A DNA stretch of 64,000 nt. Origin: Felixounavirus AN17P8. Of the stretch, positions 20,474 to 62,686 are shown piece after piece. The position numbers and the translations under genes were made by a program. The notes under the pieces are model-generated. The model was not told the DNA's origin and did no database searches. It worked only from the letters and a program-made list of their open reading frames with translations. Each line of letters opens with the position of its first letter. Positions within the stretch are counted from its first letter, which is position 1. The DNA is taken from sequence record OZ035742.1. One strand, given 5' to 3'.

Positions 20474-20522
20474 AAATTCTTTTACAGGGGGCTGTACAGC
20501 CCTCTTTCTAGAGGACAAAATA

Positions 20523-31223: not shown

Positions 31224-31757
31224 TCAAGATAGTTTTGCAAACTCTCCGTGGAGTTTAATAGCAGCTTCACAGTAAGCTTTATGGGCTTCTTCTGGTGTGT
31301 CATGGTAACCTAAAAACATCTTCTTACCTTTATAACTTATCTGTGCGACCCACTTACCAGACTTCTTTTTAAGACTTACACCCTTGTACCCAGATTTATT
31401 GGTGACTGGTTTACCTTTATTCCAAGCACTTTGAAAATCATCTGCTTCCCTTAAGTTTACAATCCTGTTGTCAAGCGAGTCTCCGTTGATATGGTCAATG
31501 ATACCTTTTGGCATCTTGCCATACACGTAAAGCCATGCGAGTCTGTGTGCTTTATGTGCTTTCTTGTCAAAATAGATACTAATCTGTTTATGACCACTTG
31601 AATCAGTCTGGATATTACCTGCCACCTTTCCTGCATAATTACTGTTAAAAACACTAACAGCTCTTGATTTACCTTCTCTACGAAGCCAAGTAAAGACCCC
31701 TGTTTCGGGGTCATAGTGCAGCAGCTCCTTTAAACGTTTTTGTAAAATTAAATCCAT
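31224..31757 (-). CDS. HNH homing endonuclease with AP2-like DNA-binding domain
   Basis: 177 aa; IIDHINGDSLDNRIVNLREAD (HNH_3-type) and C-terminal YKGVS...GKWVAQISY...HGEFA; paralogous to 53909-54400. Confidence 0.6.
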   Translation of the reverse strand: MDLILQKRLKELLHYDPETGVFTWLRREGKSRAVSVFNSNYAGKVAGNIQTDSSGHKQISIYFDKKAHKAHRLAWLYVYGKMPKGIIDHINGDSLDNRIVNLREADDFQSAWNKGKPVTNKSGYKGVSLKKKSGKWVAQISYKGKKMFLGYHDTPEEAHKAYCEAAIKLHGEFAKLS

Positions 31758-38934: not shown

Positions 38935-39190
38935 TAGTTATAAAAGAGAGGGGTTCACACCCTTCTTTGAAGAAAAAAGTTTAAATAAATTTCAGGAAGA
39001 GTGTTTGACAAAGATTGATAGGTTCTATAGAATGCTCCTTATGAAATGCGATGGGGAAGTTGAGATAAAAGAAGATTTCCACCAAAGCATGATTACAGTC
39101 ATCATTGCGCTGCCTCAGCATAATATTAGCTGGCTGTTTATAATTAAAGAAAATGTGTTTGAATATCAAGTATATCGGAGAATATCATGA
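38897..39190 (+). CDS. hypothetical protein
   Basis: 97 aa ORF overlapping primase-helicase stop. Confidence 0.3.
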   Translation: MRMQMTAHSKLSDSYKREGFTPFFEEKSLNKFQEECLTKIDRFYRMLLMKCDGEVEIKEDFHQSMITVIIALPQHNISWLFIIKENVFEYQVYRRIS

Positions 39191-39343: not shown

Positions 39344-39372
39344 TTGACAATAGAGTATCAACAAATTAGAAT
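39344..39372 (+). promoter_or_regulatory. sigma70-like promoter (TTGACA-17-TAGAAT)
   Basis: -35 TTGACA at 39344-39349, 17-nt spacer, -10 TAGAAT at 39367-39372, about 37 nt upstream of SSB-like gene. Confidence 0.55.
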
Positions 39373-49787: not shown

Positions 49788-49794
49788 AACTTGA

Positions 49795-49837
49795 CAAGGT
49801 GGTGTGGGTGTTGATAGGCTTACATCACCTTTTTTTA
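49795..49837 (+). terminator. putative terminator after nrdD
   Basis: inverted repeat aaggtg...cacctt followed by TTTTTTT; large loop, so weaker call. Confidence 0.35.
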
Positions 49838-51847: not shown

Positions 51848-52168
51848 ATGAGCAAAGTTTATAACACTCGCAAATTACAGATTTTCGTACTGTGTCAGTT
51901 TATGGCTAAAGAATACAATTTCTACTATTGTGGCACAGGTTTCATTAGCGACGATGATGGCTCATACCTCCCATTTAAAGAAGCTGTGAAGCTCTTCAAT
52001 GAAGAGGAAAGCTCTAAGAAAGATATTGAAAAGGTTAAGCTAACCTACAGCAAGAAAGATAAGAAGATAATCTGCCTAGATAACTTTGTAAAAGTTACTG
52101 GAGAAGCAAAAGAGTTTATGGATGAGAGTGAGATTTCATTCACAAGCATCTTGAAAGTGGCTCAGTAA
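51848..52168 (+). CDS. hypothetical protein
   Basis: 106 aa ORF. Confidence 0.35.
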   Translation: MSKVYNTRKLQIFVLCQFMAKEYNFYYCGTGFISDDDGSYLPFKEAVKLFNEEESSKKDIEKVKLTYSKKDKKIICLDNFVKVTGEAKEFMDESEISFTSILKVAQ

Positions 52169-52181
52169 ACAGATACTATAA

Positions 52182-52210
52182 GGGAACTGTAAAGGTTCCC
52201 TTTTTATTTT
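52182..52210 (+). terminator. rho-independent terminator
   Basis: hairpin gggaac-tgtaaag-gttccc followed by TTTTT. Confidence 0.6.
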
Positions 52211-53908: not shown

Positions 53909-54400
53909 GTGAATAAGGGTTATTTTGAAAAATACCTAATATATGAACCAGATACAGGTTTATTAATTTGGAGAGTAACCCTTTGCAGTACCGCTATTGC
54001 TGGTAATGTGGCTGGCACAAGGTCTAAGAAGGGTTATATCCAAGTCCAGATAAATAAGAAGAGGTACTATGCACATAATATTGCATGGATTATGTCTGGA
54101 GGTGAGATACCAAGTGGATATGAGGTAGACCACATAGACCTTGATAAAGCTAATAATAAGTTGGAGAATTTAAGACTTAGCACAAAGTCACAAAATCAGA
54201 GAAATAGGGGTATACACAAGAATAATAAAACTGGTGTGAAGGGTGTAAGTTTTTGTAAACAAACAGGTCTTTACAAAGCAAGAGTCATGCTTTACTATAA
54301 AGAATACTTTTGTGGAAGATTTAAAACGGTAGAAGAAGCAAAAGAAGCTGTAATTAAAAAGCGAATAGAACTTCATGGTGAGTTTGCAAGACATAACTAA
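53909..54400 (+). CDS. HNH homing endonuclease with AP2-like domain
   Basis: 163 aa; YEVDHIDLDKANNKLENLRLSTKSQN and GVKGVSF...HGEFA; paralogous to 31224-31757; inserted between Prs-like and NAMPT-like genes. Confidence 0.6.
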   Translation: MNKGYFEKYLIYEPDTGLLIWRVTLCSTAIAGNVAGTRSKKGYIQVQINKKRYYAHNIAWIMSGGEIPSGYEVDHIDLDKANNKLENLRLSTKSQNQRNRGIHKNNKTGVKGVSFCKQTGLYKARVMLYYKEYFCGRFKTVEEAKEAVIKKRIELHGEFARHN

Positions 54401-54414
54401 GAGAGAGATAAAAT

Positions 54415-56196
54415 ATGAGTAAGTCACTTTACGCAGTACCAGCAGGTCTTAATGCAGATGCTTACAAGGCATCACATATATATCAGTATCCAGATGCTAC
54501 GCAATATCTTATGTTGAACCTAACACCACGTAGCGACAAATGGTTTAACAGTCCTTTAGCAATTGATGGTGTAGTGGCTTTTGGTATTCAACGTTTTGTT
54601 AAAGATTACTTGATAGACCACTGGAACGCCACTTTCTTTGAACGTGATAAAAAAGAAGCAATTGACGAAATCTTAGAAGTTATGAATGGTGTTCTGGGTA
54701 AAGATGCTATCGGTCGAGAGCATTGGGAAGCACTTCACGACTTAGGCTATCTACCAGTTGAAGTGTACGCTGTAGAAGAAGGTACAGTTGTTCCTATGCG
54801 TGTCCCAATGATTGTCTTCCAGAACACTGTTTCAGGTTTCCATTGGGTAGCAGGTTATCTGGAAGACGCTTTCTCTGCTGAGATTTGGAAGGCTTGCACC
54901 ATTGCAACTATTGCATTGCACTACAAACGTATCTGTAAGAAGTGGGCTGACCTCACTTGCGACAACGACTTGCATTTACCTTATCAGTGCCATGACTTTG
55001 CTATGCGTGGTATGTCCGGCTTTACTGATGACGCATTCAACGCTGTAGGACACTTAACCAGCTTTAAAGGGACTGATAGCTTCCCTGCTGTATACACGGC
55101 TAAACGTATCTATGGGCAGACCTATCCAATCTCTGATATTGGAAGCTCTGTACCAGCCACTGAACACTCTGTAATGTGTGCAAACATTGCTTGGGAAGGT
55201 GGTAACGAGTTGGTTGAAGAAGAAAGACGATTTAAAGGTGAGTTGCAAACCTTCCGTCGTTTCTTAACAGAAACTTACCCAACTGGTATTGCAAGTATTG
55301 TTTCAGATACTTATAACTTCTGGAGAACTGTGTCAGAAATCTTACCAGCACTTCGTAAAGAAATTATGGAACGTGACGGTAAGCTGGTAATTCGCCCTGA
55401 CTCTGGAGACCCTGTACACATTGTCACAGGTTATAAAGCAATCCACTTAGAGTGTGCTAAGAAGGCTTATTATGAGCACCTAAGCAAGCTGGAAGCTAGT
55501 GACACAATGTTGAATGCTGTTCTGAACATGAAGCTTGAAAACATCAACTATGGTATTGCTGGATGGCTACTGTCAGAAGGCTACGAAATGGTTGTTGACA
55601 GAGAAGACTTTGAAGTTGCTGATACAGTGATGTTGAAAAATGCTTATATGGTCGGTTCTGCAAACGTTGTAACACGTCCTGTAGCTGAAATTGATGGAGC
55701 TATTAAGACACTGTACAACATCTTTGGGGGAACTATTAACTCTAAAGGGTTTAAGGTACTGGATGAACATATCGGCCTTATCTATGGTGACTCTATCACG
55801 CTGGAACGTGCAAACGAAATCCTGAAGCGTCTGTATGAAATGGGTTTTGCAAGCTCTAACGTAGTGTTTGGTGTAGGCTCTTACACTTACCAGTACATGA
55901 CTCGTGACACCTTTGCATTTGCTGTCAAAGCAACTCTTGCAAGCATTGGTGGTAAAGAGATTATGCTTGCAAAAGACCCTAAAACAGATAGTGGTGTTAA
56001 GAAGTCTGCCTTTGGTGGTGTAGCACCTATGTGGGACGGTGATAAGCTGAAAGCTGTAGATGGATATGGATTCCAGAGTTTTGCAGATGTACTTGACCAC
56101 CCAGCCTGTGCTTTACGTTTAGTCTTTAGTGACTCTGAGCAGTTCGGTTACACGACTCTTGGTGATATTCGAAATAATATTGACAAGCAGCTTTAA
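54415..56196 (+). CDS. nicotinamide phosphoribosyltransferase-like (NAMPT family; candidate nicotinamide ADP-ribose transferase)
   Basis: 593 aa; DAYKASHIYQYP, HDFAMRGMSG, SFKGTDS, VSDTYN, IRPDSGDP, IYGDSI align with conserved NAMPT motifs (DSYKVTHYKQYP, HDFGYRG, NFKGTDT, VSDSYD, IRPDSGNP, IQGDGV). Confidence 0.8.
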   Translation: MSKSLYAVPAGLNADAYKASHIYQYPDATQYLMLNLTPRSDKWFNSPLAIDGVVAFGIQRFVKDYLIDHWNATFFERDKKEAIDEILEVMNGVLGKDAIGREHWEALHDLGYLPVEVYAVEEGTVVPMRVPMIVFQNTVSGFHWVAGYLEDAFSAEIWKACTIATIALHYKRICKKWADLTCDNDLHLPYQCHDFAMRGMSGFTDDAFNAVGHLTSFKGTDSFPAVYTAKRIYGQTYPISDIGSSVPATEHSVMCANIAWEGGNELVEEERRFKGELQTFRRFLTETYPTGIASIVSDTYNFWRTVSEILPALRKEIMERDGKLVIRPDSGDPVHIVTGYKAIHLECAKKAYYEHLSKLEASDTMLNAVLNMKLENINYGIAGWLLSEGYEMVVDREDFEVADTVMLKNAYMVGSANVVTRPVAEIDGAIKTLYNIFGGTINSKGFKVLDEHIGLIYGDSITLERANEILKRLYEMGFASSNVVFGVGSYTYQYMTRDTFAFAVKATLASIGGKEIMLAKDPKTDSGVKKSAFGGVAPMWDGDKLKAVDGYGFQSFADVLDHPACALRLVFSDSEQFGYTTLGDIRNNIDKQL

Positions 56197-56210
56197 AAGT
56201 ATATGATAAG

Positions 56211-56233
56211 AGGCTCCTACGGGAGCCTTTTTA
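56211..56233 (+). terminator. rho-independent terminator
   Basis: hairpin aggctcc-tacg-ggagcct followed by TTTTT. Confidence 0.6.
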
Positions 56234-56249
56234 ATTTCTGGAGAAAGAC

Positions 56250-56585
56250 ATGAAAATCAAAGAGATGAATATTAACGTTGTCTTGGAAGAACGCTGGGAA
56301 AACATTAAGAAACCTGAAGATGGTAAAAAGTTTCTTAACAAAATTTTAGTAGCGGCTAAAGAAGAACTGACGGGTAAGGTTGCAGCAGCAATCACAATAA
56401 AGGTTTGTGTAAAAGGTCTTCCACAACATCACCAATTTGCACTTGACGAGTTTAAAGAAAGCTTCTACAATCCAAACAAACAGATGCTTGAAAGTAACTT
56501 TGCAGTATCTACAAGTATCGTCCATGACAGAAGCTTTATCCTTTACAAAAACATGAGAGGTGAGTCATGCAAGCATATTGGATAG
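56250..56585 (+). CDS. hypothetical protein
   Basis: 111 aa ORF. Confidence 0.35.
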   Translation: MKIKEMNINVVLEERWENIKKPEDGKKFLNKILVAAKEELTGKVAAAITIKVCVKGLPQHHQFALDEFKESFYNPNKQMLESNFAVSTSIVHDRSFILYKNMRGESCKHIG

Positions 56586-56743
56586 AAATTTTACTGTCAC
56601 TTGGTAGTGTAGCAGTATTTGTTTACCTTCTTTGCAAGTACTATGCAGAGCACAAGAAGTGTGACTACTGTAACGGAGAAGGGTACACAAGAGCAGGCTG
56701 TTGCCCTATGTGTGGTGGTTCTGGTAAAATGTTTAATAAGTAA
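56567..56743 (+). CDS. small membrane-anchored zinc-ribbon protein (hypothetical)
   Basis: 58 aa ORF below the track cutoff; hydrophobic N-terminal helix then CDYCNGEG...CPMCGGSG. Confidence 0.25.
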   Translation: MQAYWIEILLSLGSVAVFVYLLCKYYAEHKKCDYCNGEGYTRAGCCPMCGGSGKMFNK

Positions 56744-56771
56744 TTTAACAGTAAACTAAGAGGAAAGTATT

Positions 56772-59138
56772 ATGCGCATGGTAAACGACCACGCAGAAGT
56801 GATTAAGAGTTCAACTTCTTTGGAGACATCTCAAGCACAGATTACAATGACACCTGAAATGTTTAGCCTTCTGAGTTCTGGTGTATACACGTTTAAAGAG
56901 CGAGCAGTGATTCGTGAACTGTCATGTAACGCAGTAGATGCTCAGAAAGAAGCTGGAAAAGAAAACATCCCATTCCATGTGCATTTACCTACTCGATTTG
57001 AGCCTTACTTTGAAGTCCGTGACTTTGGAACTGGTTTAACCCACGACAAAGTAATGAGTTTGTATCTGAACTACGGGGCTTCTACGAAGAATGACTCTAA
57101 TGATTACATTGGTGCAATGGGTATCGGCTCAAAATCCCCATTTGCAATTGCTCAGTCATTCACAGTATCTAGCTATGTTGATGGTGTTGTTAATAAGTAC
57201 TCTGTTTACCTTGAGAATGGTATCCCTCAAGTGACTAAGCTTACTACTAACCCAACAAATGAACCTAATGGCTTAGCTGTACGTGTGGCAGTTGCTGACC
57301 ACCGTATTTCAAAGTTCTTTGAAGAGGCTGGTCACGTATATTCATACTTTGCTGTAAAACCAGAAAGTAACATTGTATATGATGACGTGTTAGCAGATAT
57401 GAACGTCATTGCTCGTGAAGAAGGTGTTTATGACGCTATGATTCATAAGCAAAGCTGGCGTTCTAGTGGTAACAGGACAGAGTTTAATGTGGTGATGGGT
57501 AATATTGCCTATCCAGTGAACATGGAAGCATTACTTGGTGATGATTTCTTCAAAGTCTTGCCAGAGTTTTTCCGTAGGAGCGTAGACCTTGTAAACATCT
57601 ACATGCCTATTGGTTCAGTTGCTATAGCAGCTTCTCGTGAAGCATTGCAGATGAATGATACGACAAAAAATGTTATCATTGAGGCAACTAAAAAGATAAC
57701 TGAAGCAATTACAAAGGATGTTATCAAGAAAGTTAATAGTCAACCTACACTCATGGATGCTGCACAGGCTTATGCTGAGTTACGTTTGAACTCACGAGAA
57801 ATGTTTAATGCTGTGTGTCCAAAGCTAGAGTGGGGAGGTGTTAAGCTTGATTCTCTGGAAGAAGAATTGCTAAACATTCGTCGTGGGATTATCTACGCAG
57901 AAGACGGCTCAGTCATTTATGAACGTGACGGTAAAGGCAATATTAAGGTTGATAGGAACGGAAACAACATCCCTAAAGTAGATTATCTTTATAACCCAGT
58001 TGCTTATGTCAAGTTCAACTCTTTAGAGAGTAAGGTTCGTGCAACAGCACTTTCCTACACTCAAGAGGCAAGTATGTTCAATATCTTTGGTGCAATGCGT
58101 AAGAGCCAAATTGAACAGTTTTTGTTCGTGATTAATGACCGCCGCAATAAAAACGGTACTGAGAAGACTGTAGGCCGCAATCAGATTCTGCGTGGTGCAT
58201 GTCGAGACTATGCCAGTGAGTCAAGTCTGTTTCACAGATACAATGGTATTGTGTTTGTATTCTCGACTGAAAAAGAGTTAGATGATTTAATCAATCTACA
58301 CAAACTTGATAAAAGCTTGTTAAAGATTGTGAAAATGTCTGATAAGGAACACCATTACCAGCGCAAAGAAGCTGTAAGAGGTGTTGTAAAACTCTGGAAA
58401 GCAGTTCCAGCAGAATCTGTAGCTTCATACACAGAGGTGTCAGAAGACTTAGACACAATTGAAGAGCCTCAGCTTTACATTAAGGCAGTAGGTGACACAG
58501 TTGATGGCAAATGCTTTTGCTCATCTCCAGAAGATGTAGCTAAGTCAGTTGCTAATGTTATAGGGAAGACAGTCTATGTTTTCCGAAAAGCAAATTGGAA
58601 AAAGATACCAGAAGACTGGATTGAAGTAGATGAGAAGCTCTTGAACGACAGCTTAACTGATGTTCACTGGATTAATCATAACAGGTATATGACACGCATC
58701 TACATGAATGGTGTTCTTGACCTTACAAGCAGTTGGATTATTGCCAGAAACTTTACATTCAATAACAGGAAGATTTCTCGTGGTTATTGCTACTCACGAG
58801 ATACTAGCAAAACTATCTTCCTAGAAGGTAACGAAGAGGCTGTAGAGGCAATTTTCGGTAAAATCCAGTATGTTGCTGCACCGTTTGCATACACTTACAC
58901 TATTAGTGTGTTGAAGACTTTGAAAGAATGTCTTGACAATGATACAAAGCTTTACAAGAAAATTAAGAAAGCTGGCGACCGCATGGTTATTAAGTTGGCA
59001 AACTACCTTTCAAAAAGAAAACAAGAAAACTTCTTGCTTTCCCATTTAGATTGGAATAAAGTGTCACCTATTGAAGTGAGTAAGTTTTTGGGCTTTAATG
59101 TGAAATGTGTTCCAGAAGGTACAACAGTTTACGATTAA
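56772..59138 (+). CDS. rIIA: rIIA-like protein with N-terminal GHKL (HATPase_c) ATPase domain
   Basis: 788 aa; GHKL motifs ELSCNAVDA (N box), VRDFGTGL (G1), GAMGIGSKS (G2); followed by rIIB-like gene. Confidence 0.6.
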   Translation: MRMVNDHAEVIKSSTSLETSQAQITMTPEMFSLLSSGVYTFKERAVIRELSCNAVDAQKEAGKENIPFHVHLPTRFEPYFEVRDFGTGLTHDKVMSLYLNYGASTKNDSNDYIGAMGIGSKSPFAIAQSFTVSSYVDGVVNKYSVYLENGIPQVTKLTTNPTNEPNGLAVRVAVADHRISKFFEEAGHVYSYFAVKPESNIVYDDVLADMNVIAREEGVYDAMIHKQSWRSSGNRTEFNVVMGNIAYPVNMEALLGDDFFKVLPEFFRRSVDLVNIYMPIGSVAIAASREALQMNDTTKNVIIEATKKITEAITKDVIKKVNSQPTLMDAAQAYAELRLNSREMFNAVCPKLEWGGVKLDSLEEELLNIRRGIIYAEDGSVIYERDGKGNIKVDRNGNNIPKVDYLYNPVAYVKFNSLESKVRATALSYTQEASMFNIFGAMRKSQIEQFLFVINDRRNKNGTEKTVGRNQILRGACRDYASESSLFHRYNGIVFVFSTEKELDDLINLHKLDKSLLKIVKMSDKEHHYQRKEAVRGVVKLWKAVPAESVASYTEVSEDLDTIEEPQLYIKAVGDTVDGKCFCSSPEDVAKSVANVIGKTVYVFRKANWKKIPEDWIEVDEKLLNDSLTDVHWINHNRYMTRIYMNGVLDLTSSWIIARNFTFNNRKISRGYCYSRDTSKTIFLEGNEEAVEAIFGKIQYVAAPFAYTYTISVLKTLKECLDNDTKLYKKIKKAGDRMVIKLANYLSKRKQENFLLSHLDWNKVSPIEVSKFLGFNVKCVPEGTTVYD

Positions 59139-59142
59139 GTGC

Positions 59143-59172
59143 TTGACAAGGGGCTTCAAAGCCCCTTAGAAT
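59143..59172 (+). promoter_or_regulatory. sigma70-like promoter (TTGACA-18-TAGAAT) with hairpin in spacer
   Basis: -35 TTGACA 59143-59148, -10 TAGAAT 59167-59172; spacer forms palindrome aaggggct-tcaa-agcccctt; about 45 nt upstream of rIIB-like gene. Confidence 0.5.
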
Positions 59173-59216
59173 AGCCTCACAAAATGAGTTATTAACTAAC
59201 AAGAGAGAGTAATAAG

Positions 59217-60326
59217 ATGACTACTAAAACTAAAGCACAGATTGACGCAGAAATTTACAAACTGGTTAAAGAGGGTAAGCTGACTAAAACAGCTATTGCA
59301 CAGAAATTTAACACCTCAACACGTTCAGTTGGTCGTGCTGTAGAGCGTCATGAAGCAACCTTAAAAGGTAAGAAAAAGGTAGCTTCTAAACCAGCTACGA
59401 AGACTTTGAAGCAAGTTGCTAAATCAGTTAAAAAGAAAGCTGGAAAACCAGTTGAAAATGTTGTTAAAGAGACTGTACAAAAGGCTCCGGTAAATAAACT
59501 ACACGAAGCTATGCAGAATGGTAACCAGATTGAGTATATGATTACTGGCGATTCTATTATCATGACTTTTGGTGCAGATTCTGAAATCGTTGAATCTACC
59601 CATCCGAACTACAAAGAAATCGTAATGGCTGTTGTATCCGGTGAGTATAAGAAAGCTTTCGAACTGATGAACATTCGTAAGTCTATCGAAAACTTCACTC
59701 AGGGTGCTATCACCATCAAAGGTGACAAGTTATTCTATGGTGCTGTTGAGATGCGTTCTACTCTGGTTGACCGTATTCTTCACATGATGAAGACTGGAGA
59801 TAAGGGTTTTGAACGCCTTGTGATGTTCTTCGAAAAACTGATGGAAAACCCATCTAAAGATTCTGTAGAACAACTTTGGGGATTCGTATCTCACCTTGAT
59901 GTTGAAATTGATGAAGAAGGCTACATCATTGGTTGGAAGAAAGTCTCTACTCGTGAAGGCAAGCTGGTTGACTCCCACACCTACAGAGTTCCTAATGATT
60001 TGGGTAACATTGTAGAAATGCCACGTTGGATGGTTGATAATAACCGTAACGTGACTTGCTCTCAAGGTCTTCACGTTGGTGCTTGGGATTACGTTCGTTG
60101 CTTCTCAGGCGACACAATCCTGAAGGTTCGTGTCCATCCACGAGACGTTGTATCCGTACCAACTGATTACAACGATATGAAGATGCGCTCGTCTCGTTAT
60201 GAAGTTGCAGCAATCGTTGATAATCAACGTAAAGTGCTGAAAGCATGGGATGGCAAGACTGAAGCTTTACATGTCATCGTCGGTACTGCTGGAGAACTTA
60301 TCTCCCAACGTAAACGTGAAATCTAA
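59217..60326 (+). CDS. rIIB: rIIB-like protein
   Basis: 369 aa; adjacency to rIIA-like gene; segments RSTLVDRIL, VEMPRWMVDNNRNVTCSQGLHV, VRVHPRDVVSVPTDYNDMKMR resemble T4 rIIB as recalled from memory. Confidence 0.5.
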   Translation: MTTKTKAQIDAEIYKLVKEGKLTKTAIAQKFNTSTRSVGRAVERHEATLKGKKKVASKPATKTLKQVAKSVKKKAGKPVENVVKETVQKAPVNKLHEAMQNGNQIEYMITGDSIIMTFGADSEIVESTHPNYKEIVMAVVSGEYKKAFELMNIRKSIENFTQGAITIKGDKLFYGAVEMRSTLVDRILHMMKTGDKGFERLVMFFEKLMENPSKDSVEQLWGFVSHLDVEIDEEGYIIGWKKVSTREGKLVDSHTYRVPNDLGNIVEMPRWMVDNNRNVTCSQGLHVGAWDYVRCFSGDTILKVRVHPRDVVSVPTDYNDMKMRSSRYEVAAIVDNQRKVLKAWDGKTEALHVIVGTAGELISQRKREI

Positions 60327-60343
60327 TAAGTAATTTCTTAAAA

Positions 60344-60367
60344 GGCTGCTTCGGCGGCCTTTTTTAT
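60344..60367 (+). terminator. rho-independent terminator
   Basis: hairpin ggctgc-ttcg-gcggcc followed by TTTTTT. Confidence 0.6.
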
Positions 60368-60426
60368 TTGTATTTTGTGCAGAGTGCTGTATAATTGTTG
60401 TCACGATAAACTAAACAGGAGAACCA

Positions 60427-60975
60427 ATGAAGAAATTGATTCTAGGTTTGTGCTTAATGTTTACAGCACACTTATCTTATGCAGTTGACTGCCCAGAGCT
60501 ATCAATTAGCCAAAAAGTAAACATGTTAAAAGCTTACCAGTATGGTGAGAATAACATGGGTAAAGGTTGGGGTATCACTCTAGCTGCTATAGCCTTACAA
60601 GAGTCAGAGTTAGGTCTAAAGGTAGAGAATAAAAAGACCCATGACTATGGTATTTTCCAGAATCACTTGAAGACTGTTGTAAAGCGTAACAAAATCAGTC
60701 CTAATGTGGCTAAAAAGAAACTCTTAAAAGACTTTGACTATGCTGCGAAGGAAACGCACAAAGAACTTGAGTTTTGGACAAAGGTACATGGTCAGCCAAA
60801 GTCAAAGAAGACTTTACAAAAAGTTTTAGCGTCATATAATGCTGGGTATTCGTACAGAATCCCTAAAGCTAAGAAATATTCTCAAGATGTTTATAACAAT
60901 ATGAAAGTAATTGCTCAATGTGAATTTGCAACAAACATTTCTAAGGTAAACCATGAAAAAATTAAGAAAGTCTGA
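60427..60975 (+). CDS. lytic transglycosylase-like endolysin with signal peptide
   Basis: 182 aa; signal peptide MKKLILGLCLMFTAHLSYA; SLT-like catalytic region AIALQESELG and SYNAGYSY; perfect TATAAT 30 nt upstream. Confidence 0.55.
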   Translation: MKKLILGLCLMFTAHLSYAVDCPELSISQKVNMLKAYQYGENNMGKGWGITLAAIALQESELGLKVENKKTHDYGIFQNHLKTVVKRNKISPNVAKKKLLKDFDYAAKETHKELEFWTKVHGQPKSKKTLQKVLASYNAGYSYRIPKAKKYSQDVYNNMKVIAQCEFATNISKVNHEKIKKV

Positions 60976-61648
60976 TGTAGTATTGTGCCATGCTTATGAC
61001 TTACATCCTCATGAGTTAGGTCTTGATTCCTGTGTATGGACTCCAGAACAGTGCAGGGATTTTGAAGACACCGCAAGAGAAGTTGTATGTTCACTTGAAG
61101 AGTTCCACACATCAGAACCAATTGTGAACGTTGTGGACAAAGAGACTGGACAATCCATAGGTGTAAGACGTGATAGTTTAGTCATAGTTAATAAAGACCT
61201 TATAGAAAAAGGGAATCTCATCTTAGCAGATATTGATGGTGTTCTTACAAATTTTAATCACGAAGATTGTTCAACGGAATTGACTGATGGTTCATTTTCA
61301 CAGTACACTAATCTTCTTGATTCTGTAAGAGCAAAACCAACGTATGTTTTCAATATCATTGATGCAATTGCTAATCATGCTGCCGTTGGACTCTTGACAG
61401 CGAGAGGTGAATCTCAGAGAATACCCACTGAGATGTTTTTAAGGCATAACACGGAGCATGACTACATGCTTTTTATGCGTGGTTTTGGGACTAACTCTAT
61501 AAGTGCAGAAAGTTTGAAAGTGAGGATGATTCAGTCTTGCATTCTGCCTTACTTTAATATAGTATGTTTTATAGAAGACACAGAGAAGAATGTGCAGAAG
61601 GTGAACAGAATCCTTCCACACATCAAAACCATGTTAGTTAAACATTGA
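60953..61648 (+). CDS. HAD-superfamily hydrolase-like protein (putative nucleotidase/phosphatase)
   Basis: 231 aa; ILADIDGVLTN matches HAD motif I (DxDG); start may be further downstream. Confidence 0.35.
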   Translation: MKKLRKSDVVLCHAYDLHPHELGLDSCVWTPEQCRDFEDTAREVVCSLEEFHTSEPIVNVVDKETGQSIGVRRDSLVIVNKDLIEKGNLILADIDGVLTNFNHEDCSTELTDGSFSQYTNLLDSVRAKPTYVFNIIDAIANHAAVGLLTARGESQRIPTEMFLRHNTEHDYMLFMRGFGTNSISAESLKVRMIQSCILPYFNIVCFIEDTEKNVQKVNRILPHIKTMLVKH

Positions 61649-62175: not shown

Positions 62176-62523
62176 ATGACATTTAAAGAGTTCTGTCAAG
62201 CTACTTTCATAATTGTTTTCTTAGTTGGTGCAGGTGTCTGGGGAGGATACTCTTACAGAGACTATCAAGTTGCTGAAACTGAGCTAAACAATCAAAAGCT
62301 CATAAGTGTTGCTAAAGATGCTTATCAGGAAGGATTAGTCACACTGAGCACCAATTACAAGAATGATTTGAAAGATGTGCTTGCTAAGAATAAGCATACA
62401 AAAGAGGTACTAACATATGAAAAAACTAAGCCAGAGTTTTATAATGTTTGTGTTACTGATAACTATGTCAGGGTGTTCAACGAACAAAGTGAACAGTACA
62501 TTCAAAAACTCCCAAGTAAGTGA
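62176..62523 (+). CDS. i-spanin (Rz-like) candidate
   Basis: 115 aa; N-terminal TM helix FIIVFLVGAGVWGG then charged coiled-coil domain; 3' end overlaps lipoprotein ORF in another frame. Confidence 0.4.
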   Translation: MTFKEFCQATFIIVFLVGAGVWGGYSYRDYQVAETELNNQKLISVAKDAYQEGLVTLSTNYKNDLKDVLAKNKHTKEVLTYEKTKPEFYNVCVTDNYVRVFNEQSEQYIQKLPSK

Positions 62524-62686
62524 GAGTGATAAGTACACTCAAGAAGAATCACGGTATATCATCAAAGGTAACACAGGCGGTGATGTAGCAGCAGCCCTTG
62601 AGTTCTATCGTGATGGATTTTACCAGTGTACACTCAAAGCTAATAACCTTATTGACATGATTTTATTAGGGAATAAGCAGCAATGA
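62417..62686 (+). CDS. o-spanin (Rz1-like outer membrane lipoprotein) candidate
   Basis: 89 aa; signal peptide ending in lipobox-like ITMSGC; starts inside the 3' end of the i-spanin candidate in a different frame. Confidence 0.4.
   Translation: MKKLSQSFIMFVLLITMSGCSTNKVNSTFKNSQVSESDKYTQEESRYIIKGNTGGDVAAALEFYRDGFYQCTLKANNLIDMILLGNKQQ

Follow-up and report, generated by a model that had tools for sequence, protein, structure and literature searches.

The stretch analysed here, 64,000 nucleotides (nt) of Felixounavirus AN17P8 (sequence record OZ035742.1; the whole stretch is called the window below), carries an rIIA/rIIB gene pair with a composite element between the two genes, a near-consensus promoter whose spacer holds a hairpin. 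On comparative evidence this hairpin is real, conserved and under selection for its structure, and it appears not to have been described. Judged from sequence, it is most likely an RNA structure formed on the sense transcript coming from rIIA, where it would serve as an attenuator or a protector of the 3' end, overlaid on the rIIB promoter. The explanation that accounts best for the findings combines an rIIA/rIIB anti-defence module, the composite promoter/hairpin element and an origin of that element related to a repeated cassette, and we consider this combination fairly probable. The genes add nothing new and the promoter had been predicted earlier; the novelty, which is modest, lies in the hairpin and in the related cassette family.

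The rIIA/rIIB locus

The window is a Felixounavirus (Felix O1-like) genome and its nearest relative is Escherichia phage Barry, whose rIIA is 99% identical. When the 4-kb rII region was compared with GenBank, 276 phage records matched, 210 of them at near-full coverage and 90-99% identity. The matching records were Felix O1-type Salmonella, Escherichia, Shigella and Citrobacter phages, with rIIA and rIIB annotated in most. Both open reading frames (ORFs) have exactly the positions and lengths given in an earlier note that had been made from the sequence alone. The genes and the elements of their junction are:

56772..59138, + strand: rIIA gene, 788 amino acids (aa)
59143..59148, + strand: -35 hexamer TTGACA, 4 nt past the rIIA stop codon
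59148..59167, + strand: perfect 9+9 palindrome AAGGGGCTT-CA-AAGCCCCTT, overlapping the -35 box by its first base and the -10 box by its last
59167..59172, + strand: -10 hexamer TAGAAT after an 18-nt spacer, with a predicted transcription start at about 59179, downstream of the hairpin
59202..59209, + strand: ribosome-binding stretch AGAGAGAG, rich in purines and upstream of the start codon (ATG) of rIIB
59217..60326, + strand: rIIB gene, 369 aa

The annotated rIIA start of phage Barry is two codons later, at ATG 56778 in window numbering. The genes lie on the same strand with rIIB immediately downstream of rIIA after a gap of 78 nt (59139-59216), and the same order was found in SUSP1, Barry and metagenomic relatives. 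By its sequence, the gene pair is the rIIA/rIIB module of a Felix O1-like myovirus. It is not new, being annotated throughout the genus and functionally tested in two relatives.

The predicted promoter between rIIA and rIIB

The earlier note had described a TTGACA-18-TAGAAT promoter with a hairpin in its spacer between the genes, and this is exactly what was found. The combination TTGACA-N16-18-TAGAAT occurred 3 times in the window against 0.07 expected, and the palindromic 20-mer, expected 0.01 times, was found once; no other promoter-like spacer in the window held a stem of more than 5 bp. Both the hexamer pair and the palindrome are more frequent than expected, and chance is an unlikely explanation. 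Both hexamers were kept in 29 related loci while the sequence past the -10 box drifted. Every Felix-like locus had TTGAC(A/T) as its -35 box, as did four lineages at a greater distance, and the ribosome-binding stretch was kept as AGAGAGAG or AAGAGAGA in relatives.

The same promoter was predicted by BPROM in UAB_Phi87 in 2016 (27,984, TTGACA / CCTTAGAAT; PMC4837284 Table S1), with no mention of the hairpin. Neither the Felix O1 terminator table (PMC3185647) nor the Barry annotation marks anything between rIIA and rIIB. In Felix O1, reverse-transcription PCR (RT-PCR) gave a peak signal at 10 min for ORF2 (rIIB) and at 25 min for ORF1 (rIIA) (PMC3185647 Table 3), a timing consistent with separate control of the two genes. 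The earlier note had suggested independent, possibly regulated, expression of rIIB. Independent expression from this near-consensus, conserved promoter is plausible, also in view of the RT-PCR timing, whereas the comparative data given below suggest another role for the hairpin than regulation of the promoter itself.

Alternatively, the promoter match could be unused, rIIA and rIIB being co-transcribed from upstream as a single long mRNA that the hairpin stabilises or punctuates. In favour of this, the start point is unmapped, the spacer of 18 nt exceeds the optimum by one base, and the GC-rich stem might hinder the promoter. However, both hexamers are kept where their intergenic surroundings drift, two more intergenic sites carry the same hexamer pair, TTGACA with a spacer of 17 nt persists in more distant lineages, and rIIB and rIIA differ in their RT-PCR timing. 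We give an unused promoter very little credence.

The other two occurrences of the hexamer pair in the window, both TTGACA-17-TAGAAT (39005-39033 and 39344-39372), are intergenic and lie in the region of the DNA-replication genes. Ahead of the promoter at 39005 stands a hairpin that contains a G·U pair (38945-38968).

Structure and conservation of the hairpin

The realistic RNA hairpin within the palindrome consists of GGGGCU/AGCCCC with flanking A-U pairs and a 4-nt loop, and its folding energy is about -12 to -15 kcal/mol. In the 29 related loci the stem GGGGCT/AGCCCC was constant and the loop varied (UCAA, UUGA, GCAA, GAAA). A set of distant junctions was also analysed, from lineages with 44-65% rIIB identity. 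Most of these lineages carried TTGACA right after the rIIA stop codon and, in the same place, a stable hairpin of unrelated sequence. At three loci (L125, L126, L127) the spacer was 17 nt and the -10 hexamer lay in the loop of an 11-15 bp stem, and at two (L030, L032) the hairpin overlapped the -10 box.

Of 12 junction lineages, a count in which the two palindromic loop variants of the window are entered separately, 10 had a sense strand that folded better than its complement and the remaining 2 showed a tie. The difference reached 14 kcal/mol, and the sense strand has this advantage because the imperfections of the stems are G·U pairs. No T-run followed the stem in any junction lineage (window hairpin tail UUAGAAUAG, TTAGAATA). 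A canonical intrinsic terminator at the junction was ruled out by the missing T-run, and a terminator for the opposite strand was ruled out in the same way, there being no T-run on that side either. An Rfam search of 56000-61000 returned sub-threshold chance matches only, none of them at the hairpin. Taken together, the sense-strand bias, the G·U pairs, the lack of a T-run and the unrelated hairpins at this position speak for an RNA structure on the sense transcript and against a duplex operator or a canonical terminator.

An operator would be the DNA-level counterpart of this structure: the palindrome would be bound as a double strand by a dimeric protein, for instance rIIB through its own helix-turn-helix (HTH) or another phage regulator, which would shut the promoter. 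The window site does suit such a role, being a perfect 9+9 dyad exactly between the -35 and -10 boxes, and rIIB has a confident HTH and is placed among phage transcription factors in one review (PMC7824862). Across lineages, however, the inverted repeat differs in sequence despite conservation of the rIIB HTH, and the imperfections are almost all sense-strand G·T, which a duplex operator would not favour. Moreover, SUSP1-like phages have only 6+6 symmetric bases around an asymmetric GAAA loop, and three lineages have repeat arms of 11-15 nt that straddle the -10 box. An operator is accordingly improbable in our judgement.

The centre of the palindrome (59157-59158) takes two forms among loci L001-L029, CA in 9 related loci as well as the window and TG in 13. 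The CA and TG 20-mers are exact reverse complements of each other, and the loop state differs between phages whose flanks are otherwise identical (L001 vs L003, L002 vs L004). Judging by this pattern, the hairpin loop seems to have been inverted more than once, for example through template switching.

A related multi-copy cassette

In close relatives, just past the window's right end, there is a run of small ORFs with about 85 nt between one and the next. These intervals are occupied by a repeated cassette, TAAAGTGC-TTTACA-NGGGGCTTA-(loop)-TAAGCCCC-AGATAAAGAGCTTTAC...CCTAAACTGGAG...ATG, whose loop contains a -10 sequence such as TAAAGT or TAAGAT at a spacer of 17. The cassette regions, recognised by TTTACA-NGGGGCTTA...TAAGCCCC-AGATAAAG, are:

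DaR-2019a, 64000-76000 (L133): 6 copies
SUSP1, 66-73 kb (L132): 7 copies
Barry, 8-14 kb (L134): 6 copies

Besides these three relatives, 46 stretches with cassettes were found in IMG/VR, all on Felix-like contigs and with up to 10 copies in one stretch. Per genome, the cassette is present 4-10 times. The pairs proposed for a three-tier cassette helix formed in 98% of cells, compared with 30-58% when the partners were slid, and one compensatory pair, G-C to U-A, was present in two copies. An ORF of DaR-2019a (L133 2926-3438) is flanked by two cassettes, and a single cassette stands in its place in Barry, which also carries a tandem cassette pair. At the rII junction itself no indel was seen. 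Of the junction element, a single copy was found in the window and likewise a single copy per genome in 27 IMG/VR contigs.

The rII element and the cassette share their 5' half, TAA(A)GTG(C/T)-TT(G/T)ACA-(A/G)GGGGCTT. The rII hairpin thereby appears to belong to, or to derive from, an apparently undescribed Felix-type cassette family. The cassettes, and promoter stem-loops of Felix O1-like phages altogether, were undescribed in the literature searched, a search that did not take in the wV8 and phiEa21-4 papers, so that priority is uncertain.

This likeness also suits a hairpin that has no regulatory role, a decayed cassette remnant whose bases are kept as promoter spacer or as a recombination site. 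The 5' half matches the multi-copy cassette, cassettes bound an indel, and the two mutually inverted loop states in near-identical relatives indicate a palindrome prone to events at the DNA level. A mere remnant is nevertheless unlikely: its stem is invariant across lineages with rIIA only 62% identical, although spacers normally drift, and the unrelated hairpins in the same place in distant lineages speak for selection on structure and not for inertia.

Two further sequences were noted in connection with the cassettes. A second repeated intergenic motif, (A)TCAACGGGGAGGG...CCTTCCCC(A)CTAA, occurs in the cassette regions. Within the window, the site at 20481-20510, upstream of the tail-fibre gene, reads TTTACA-GGGGGCTG-TA-CAGCCC and has TTTACAGGGGGCT in common with the dispersed cassette; it is listed as terminator t76 in Felix O1 (PMC3185647).

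Proposed mode of action

In the mechanism that we propose, the near-consensus sigma-70 promoter would give rIIB its own early transcription, as the sequence and the Felix O1 RT-PCR suggest. Transcripts from this embedded promoter would begin beyond the hairpin or inside its 3' arm, so that only RNA arriving from rIIA could form the hairpin. On that RNA the hairpin would attenuate read-through or make a protective 3' end, and rIIB dosage and timing would in this way be uncoupled from rIIA. The rII element would be a single-copy, positionally fixed relative of the multi-copy promoter/stem-loop cassettes in the same genomes. With the hairpin present only on incoming transcripts and the promoter's own RNA starting beyond it, such an arrangement would be a compact way to uncouple two adjacent genes.

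RNase III sites separate the messages of the early genes of T7, and the hairpin could similarly be a processing site, for RNase III or another endonuclease, that separates the rIIA and rIIB messages and is not an attenuator. Sense-strand specificity and the lack of a T-run fit processing as well, and the long imperfect helices of 15-25 bp in some lineages and in the dispersed cassettes are closer to RNase III substrates. The window hairpin, however, has only 6-9 bp, which is too short for typical RNase III recognition. In addition, the single stem-loop tested from the promoter-early stem-loop (PeSL) cassettes lowered a downstream reporter, which its authors read as termination (PMC2839356). 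The long helices of cassettes and distant lineages may be processed by RNase III, which is unlikely for the 6-9 bp stem; as an account of the rII hairpin we assign it a low probability.

Several observations weigh against an attenuating or end-protecting hairpin of cassette origin overlaid on an active promoter. A G-to-A change that weakens the stem was present in two loci (L011, L029). No covariation was found at the rII hairpin in Felixounavirus, Suspvirus and close relatives, because the stem never varies there. Erwinia phiEa21-4-like loci keep a GNRA-loop hairpin and have no recognisable -35 box. Without a T-run the hairpin fails an intrinsic-terminator scan, and termination would have to be non-canonical or weak. 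The case for homology of the junction element with the cassette is built on about 25 bases common to both, and the RT-PCR timing in Felix O1 is semi-quantitative. Finally, the literature searched yielded no mapped transcript ends and no measurements of promoter or terminator activity or of mini-circles for Felix O1-like phages, and we infer promoter use and hairpin function from the evidence given above.

The rIIA and rIIB proteins

The earlier note had called the two proteins rIIA-like and rIIB-like, and profile searches bear this out: they led to the RIIA and RIIB families, PHROG 612 and PHROG 609, and to no others. Within the proteins the following domains were delimited:

56850..57371, + strand: GHKL (Bergerat-fold) ATPase domain of rIIA
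59232..59363, + strand: three-helix HTH domain at the N terminus of rIIB, residues 6-49
59364..59501, + strand: Lys/Ala-rich basic linker of rIIB, residues ~50-95

For rIIA, residues 1-771 matched positions 1-717 of the 725 in the PHROG 612 profile (E 8.7e-189). The GHKL motifs can be read directly from the sequence: motif I, E49-x3-N53-x2-D56 (56916-56939); motif II, D84-x-G86-x-G88 (57021-57035); and motif III, G114-x2-G117-x-G119 (57111-57128). All nine key residues were invariant in an alignment of 26 rIIA sequences reaching down to 23% identity. A profile built from this alignment matched the N-domains of TRAP1, Hsp90 and HtpG in the PDB (E 2e-5) with the motifs aligned, and Pfam HATPase_c_3 was found in 16 of the 26 homologues. 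The window rIIA on its own stayed below all Pfam thresholds, and single-protein sequence searches of the PDB with rIIA and rIIB gave nothing useful. The AlphaFold model of rIIA (mean predicted local distance difference test score, pLDDT, 83) matched Hsp90-family chains in Foldseek (E 7.6e-14). The N-terminal GHKL signature that had been noted in the 788-aa protein is thus confirmed by invariant boxes, profile, homologues and fold.

Foldseek alignments of the rIIA model with Hsp90, HtpG, TRAP1 and GRP94 ran over 570-760 columns with template-modelling scores (TM-scores) of 0.16-0.30. Such low scores point to different domain orientations in the model, and the resemblance to Hsp90 may extend past the ATPase domain into a middle-domain-like region. 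With T4-type rIIA, tblastn aligned residues ~24-317 only and the C-terminal region could not be aligned. Since rIIA has been described as a GHKL domain and a C-terminal domain that varies greatly (PMC7824862), this agrees with rIIA membership and does not exclude it. From these alignments, the C-terminal 60% of rIIA is lineage-specific.

For rIIB, the PHROG 609 match had an E-value of 2e-88, and PF26926 (Phage_T4_rIIB) was precomputed on cluster representatives 87-95% identical to the window protein. Residues 12-334 (88% of the length) aligned with T4-type rIIB at 36% identity (E 6e-54). AlphaFold placed helices at 6-19, 24-30 and 35-49 with a pLDDT of about 95, and this N-terminal segment superposed on the DNA-binding domains of DeoR, RcsB and DosR with probabilities of 0.9-0.99. 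Pfam HTH_28 and HTH_23 were found in 11-12 of 33 rIIB homologues, and the window rIIB itself gave a weak match to HTH_Tnp_ISL3. Residues 53-90 are Lys/Ala-rich, have a pLDDT below 50 and are predicted to be disordered, and the linker forms a gapped, length-variable block in the alignment of homologues. The basic, HTH-like start ascribed to the 369-aa protein therefore resolves into a confident HTH followed by a basic disordered linker. A Foldseek search with the whole rIIB gave no significant structural match for the conserved C-terminal domain. One review lists rIIB among phage transcription factors (PMC7824862).

Anti-defence role in relatives

Knock-down of RIIA or RIIB in SUSP1, an Ounavirinae phage, lowered plating on lambda RexAB cells (PMC11879866). 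Compared with the window, SUSP1 has 62% identity in rIIA and 82% in rIIB, the same gene order and the same junction element. In Felixounavirus Bas63, deletion of either gene (g85, g84) reduced plating 10^4-10^5-fold on a qatABCD host, and complementation restored it (bioRxiv 10.1101/2024.10.10.617714). The role in abortive-infection exclusion that the earlier note had given for T4 is thus borne out in relatives, against RexAB in SUSP1 and QatABCD in Bas63, and the plating on exclusion hosts that it had proposed as a check has essentially been done already in these phages. By analogy, rIIA and rIIB of the window phage would together shield the infection from abortive-infection systems of hosts or prophages.

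Neighbouring genes and other hairpins of the window

rIIB is followed by an intrinsic terminator:

60340..60369, + strand: 10-bp stem, UUCG loop and T-run, then a promoter-like site with a perfect TATAAT

This terminator is t2 in Felix O1 (PMC3185647 Table 2) and is also annotated in phage Barry. Farther downstream (60427-61648 and 62176-62686) lie genes for an SLT-like protein with a signal peptide and a PseT-type polynucleotide kinase/phosphatase and an overlapping gene pair, annotated as Rz-like spanin and o-spanin in SUSP1. HNH homing-endonuclease genes at 53909-54400 and 31224-31757 (-) are inserted among metabolic and replication genes, the first beside genes for phosphoribosyl pyrophosphate synthetase and NAMPT and the second downstream of the DNA polymerase gene.

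Scans of the window for a -35 box with a hairpin used a compact-stem definition; a loose version gave 97 mostly loose matches, and an RNALfold version gave 733 'hairpins' and lost real cases. A -35-like hexamer directly adjoins three further hairpins, giving TTGAC(A/T)-AGG...CCT, at 49791-49835 (+), 31227-31190 (-) and 27538-27505 (-). T-runs follow those at 49791 and 27538 and not the one at 31227. The hairpin at 49791 has a -10-like TAGGCT in its loop at a spacer of 18; at 31227, TTGACA includes the TGA stop codon of an HNH endonuclease gene and is separated from TATACA by a 22-nt spacer. The sequence TTGACAAGG occurred 4 times against 0.78 expected. By a rough estimate over 52 compact hairpins, a perfect TTGACA abutting a compact hairpin at a fixed offset, observed 3 times, would be expected about 0.02-0.05 times by chance.

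Promoter-like sites at 52151-52202 (TTGAAA-17-TACTAT) and 56180-56231 (TTGACA-16-TATGAT) stop one base before a canonical terminator hairpin. Transcripts from these sites would begin inside the 5' arm and escape that terminator, which would be another register of promoter/terminator overlap.

Comparison with known systems

Like T4, the window phage has adjacent genes in the order rIIA then rIIB, an rIIA with an N-terminal GHKL ATPase and an rIIB with an N-terminal HTH and a PF26926-type domain, and relatives of the window phage depend on the pair for plating on RexAB or QatABCD hosts. T4-type rIIA and rIIB are annotated in Felix O1, wV8, UAB_Phi87, SUSP1 and Bas63. T4 rIIB likewise has promoters of its own; the T4 transcription review held nothing on them. 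Unlike T4, the window phage is an 86-90 kb member of the Ounavirinae and is not T4-like. The T4-type junction differs in having only a small hairpin, at the rIIA end, and no embedded TTGACA promoter. At eight T4-like loci (L035, L041, L042, L044, L045, L068, L086, L088) a short GC-rich hairpin was seen either in the rIIA-rIIB gap or at the very end of rIIA, its loop holding the rIIA stop codon in some of them, and none had an embedded TTGACA promoter.

The rII hairpin resembles the intrinsic terminators of the same genome (56208, 60340, 62135) in its GC-rich stem right after a stop codon and in its energy, -12 to -15 compared with -15 to -17 kcal/mol. However, those terminators have five or more T after the stem, whereas the rII hairpin has no such run.

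A closer parallel is offered by the PeSL cassettes, known from T4-like phages (Arbiol 2010, PMC2839356; Comeau 2014, PMC4122927). Their stem-loop, which contains G-T pairs, occupies the space between the -35 and -10 boxes or overlaps the latter (PMC2839356). When one of these stem-loops was put downstream of a strong promoter, lacZ expression fell to about the same extent as with the strong rrnB T1 terminator (PMC2839356; PMC4122927). By definition, PeSLs occur in multiple copies, lie beside small ORFs of unknown function and mediate indels (PMC2839356; PMC4122927). The rII element has the same predicted layout, with sigma-70-type boxes, a stable GC-rich stem-loop between them or over the -10 box and then a Shine-Dalgarno sequence and ATG. 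In contrast to PeSLs, it is single-copy and syntenic between two conserved genes, belongs to another phage subfamily and shares no sequence with them. The AT-rich upstream element of PeSLs has no clear counterpart at rII, where the -35 box begins 4 nt past the stop codon and the bases upstream are coding. The Felix-type cassette is like PeSLs in being multi-copy, in flanking small ORFs of unknown function and in bounding an indel between close relatives; the one cassette-bounded ORF indel between DaR-2019a and Barry would fit the signature that defines PeSL-mediated shuffling.

The cassette family could explain gene gain and loss in the variable early region of Felix O1-like phages. These phages are widely used for Salmonella typing and biocontrol, and the cassette is a candidate self-insulated expression unit for engineering them. 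Promoter/stem-loop cassettes have so far been described only in T4-like phages, and the rII hairpin resembles them. We put forward, tentatively and at slightly less than an even chance, that Ounavirinae carry their own PeSL-type mobile cassettes, in which a sigma-70 promoter enclosed by an RNA hairpin of the sense strand both shields each small early gene from upstream transcription and drives it, and recombination between copies shuffles these genes, and that the rII junction is a domesticated, fixed copy setting the ratio of rIIA to rIIB. If this is true, insulators made of an overlapping promoter and hairpin arose far outside the T4-like phages or independently of them.

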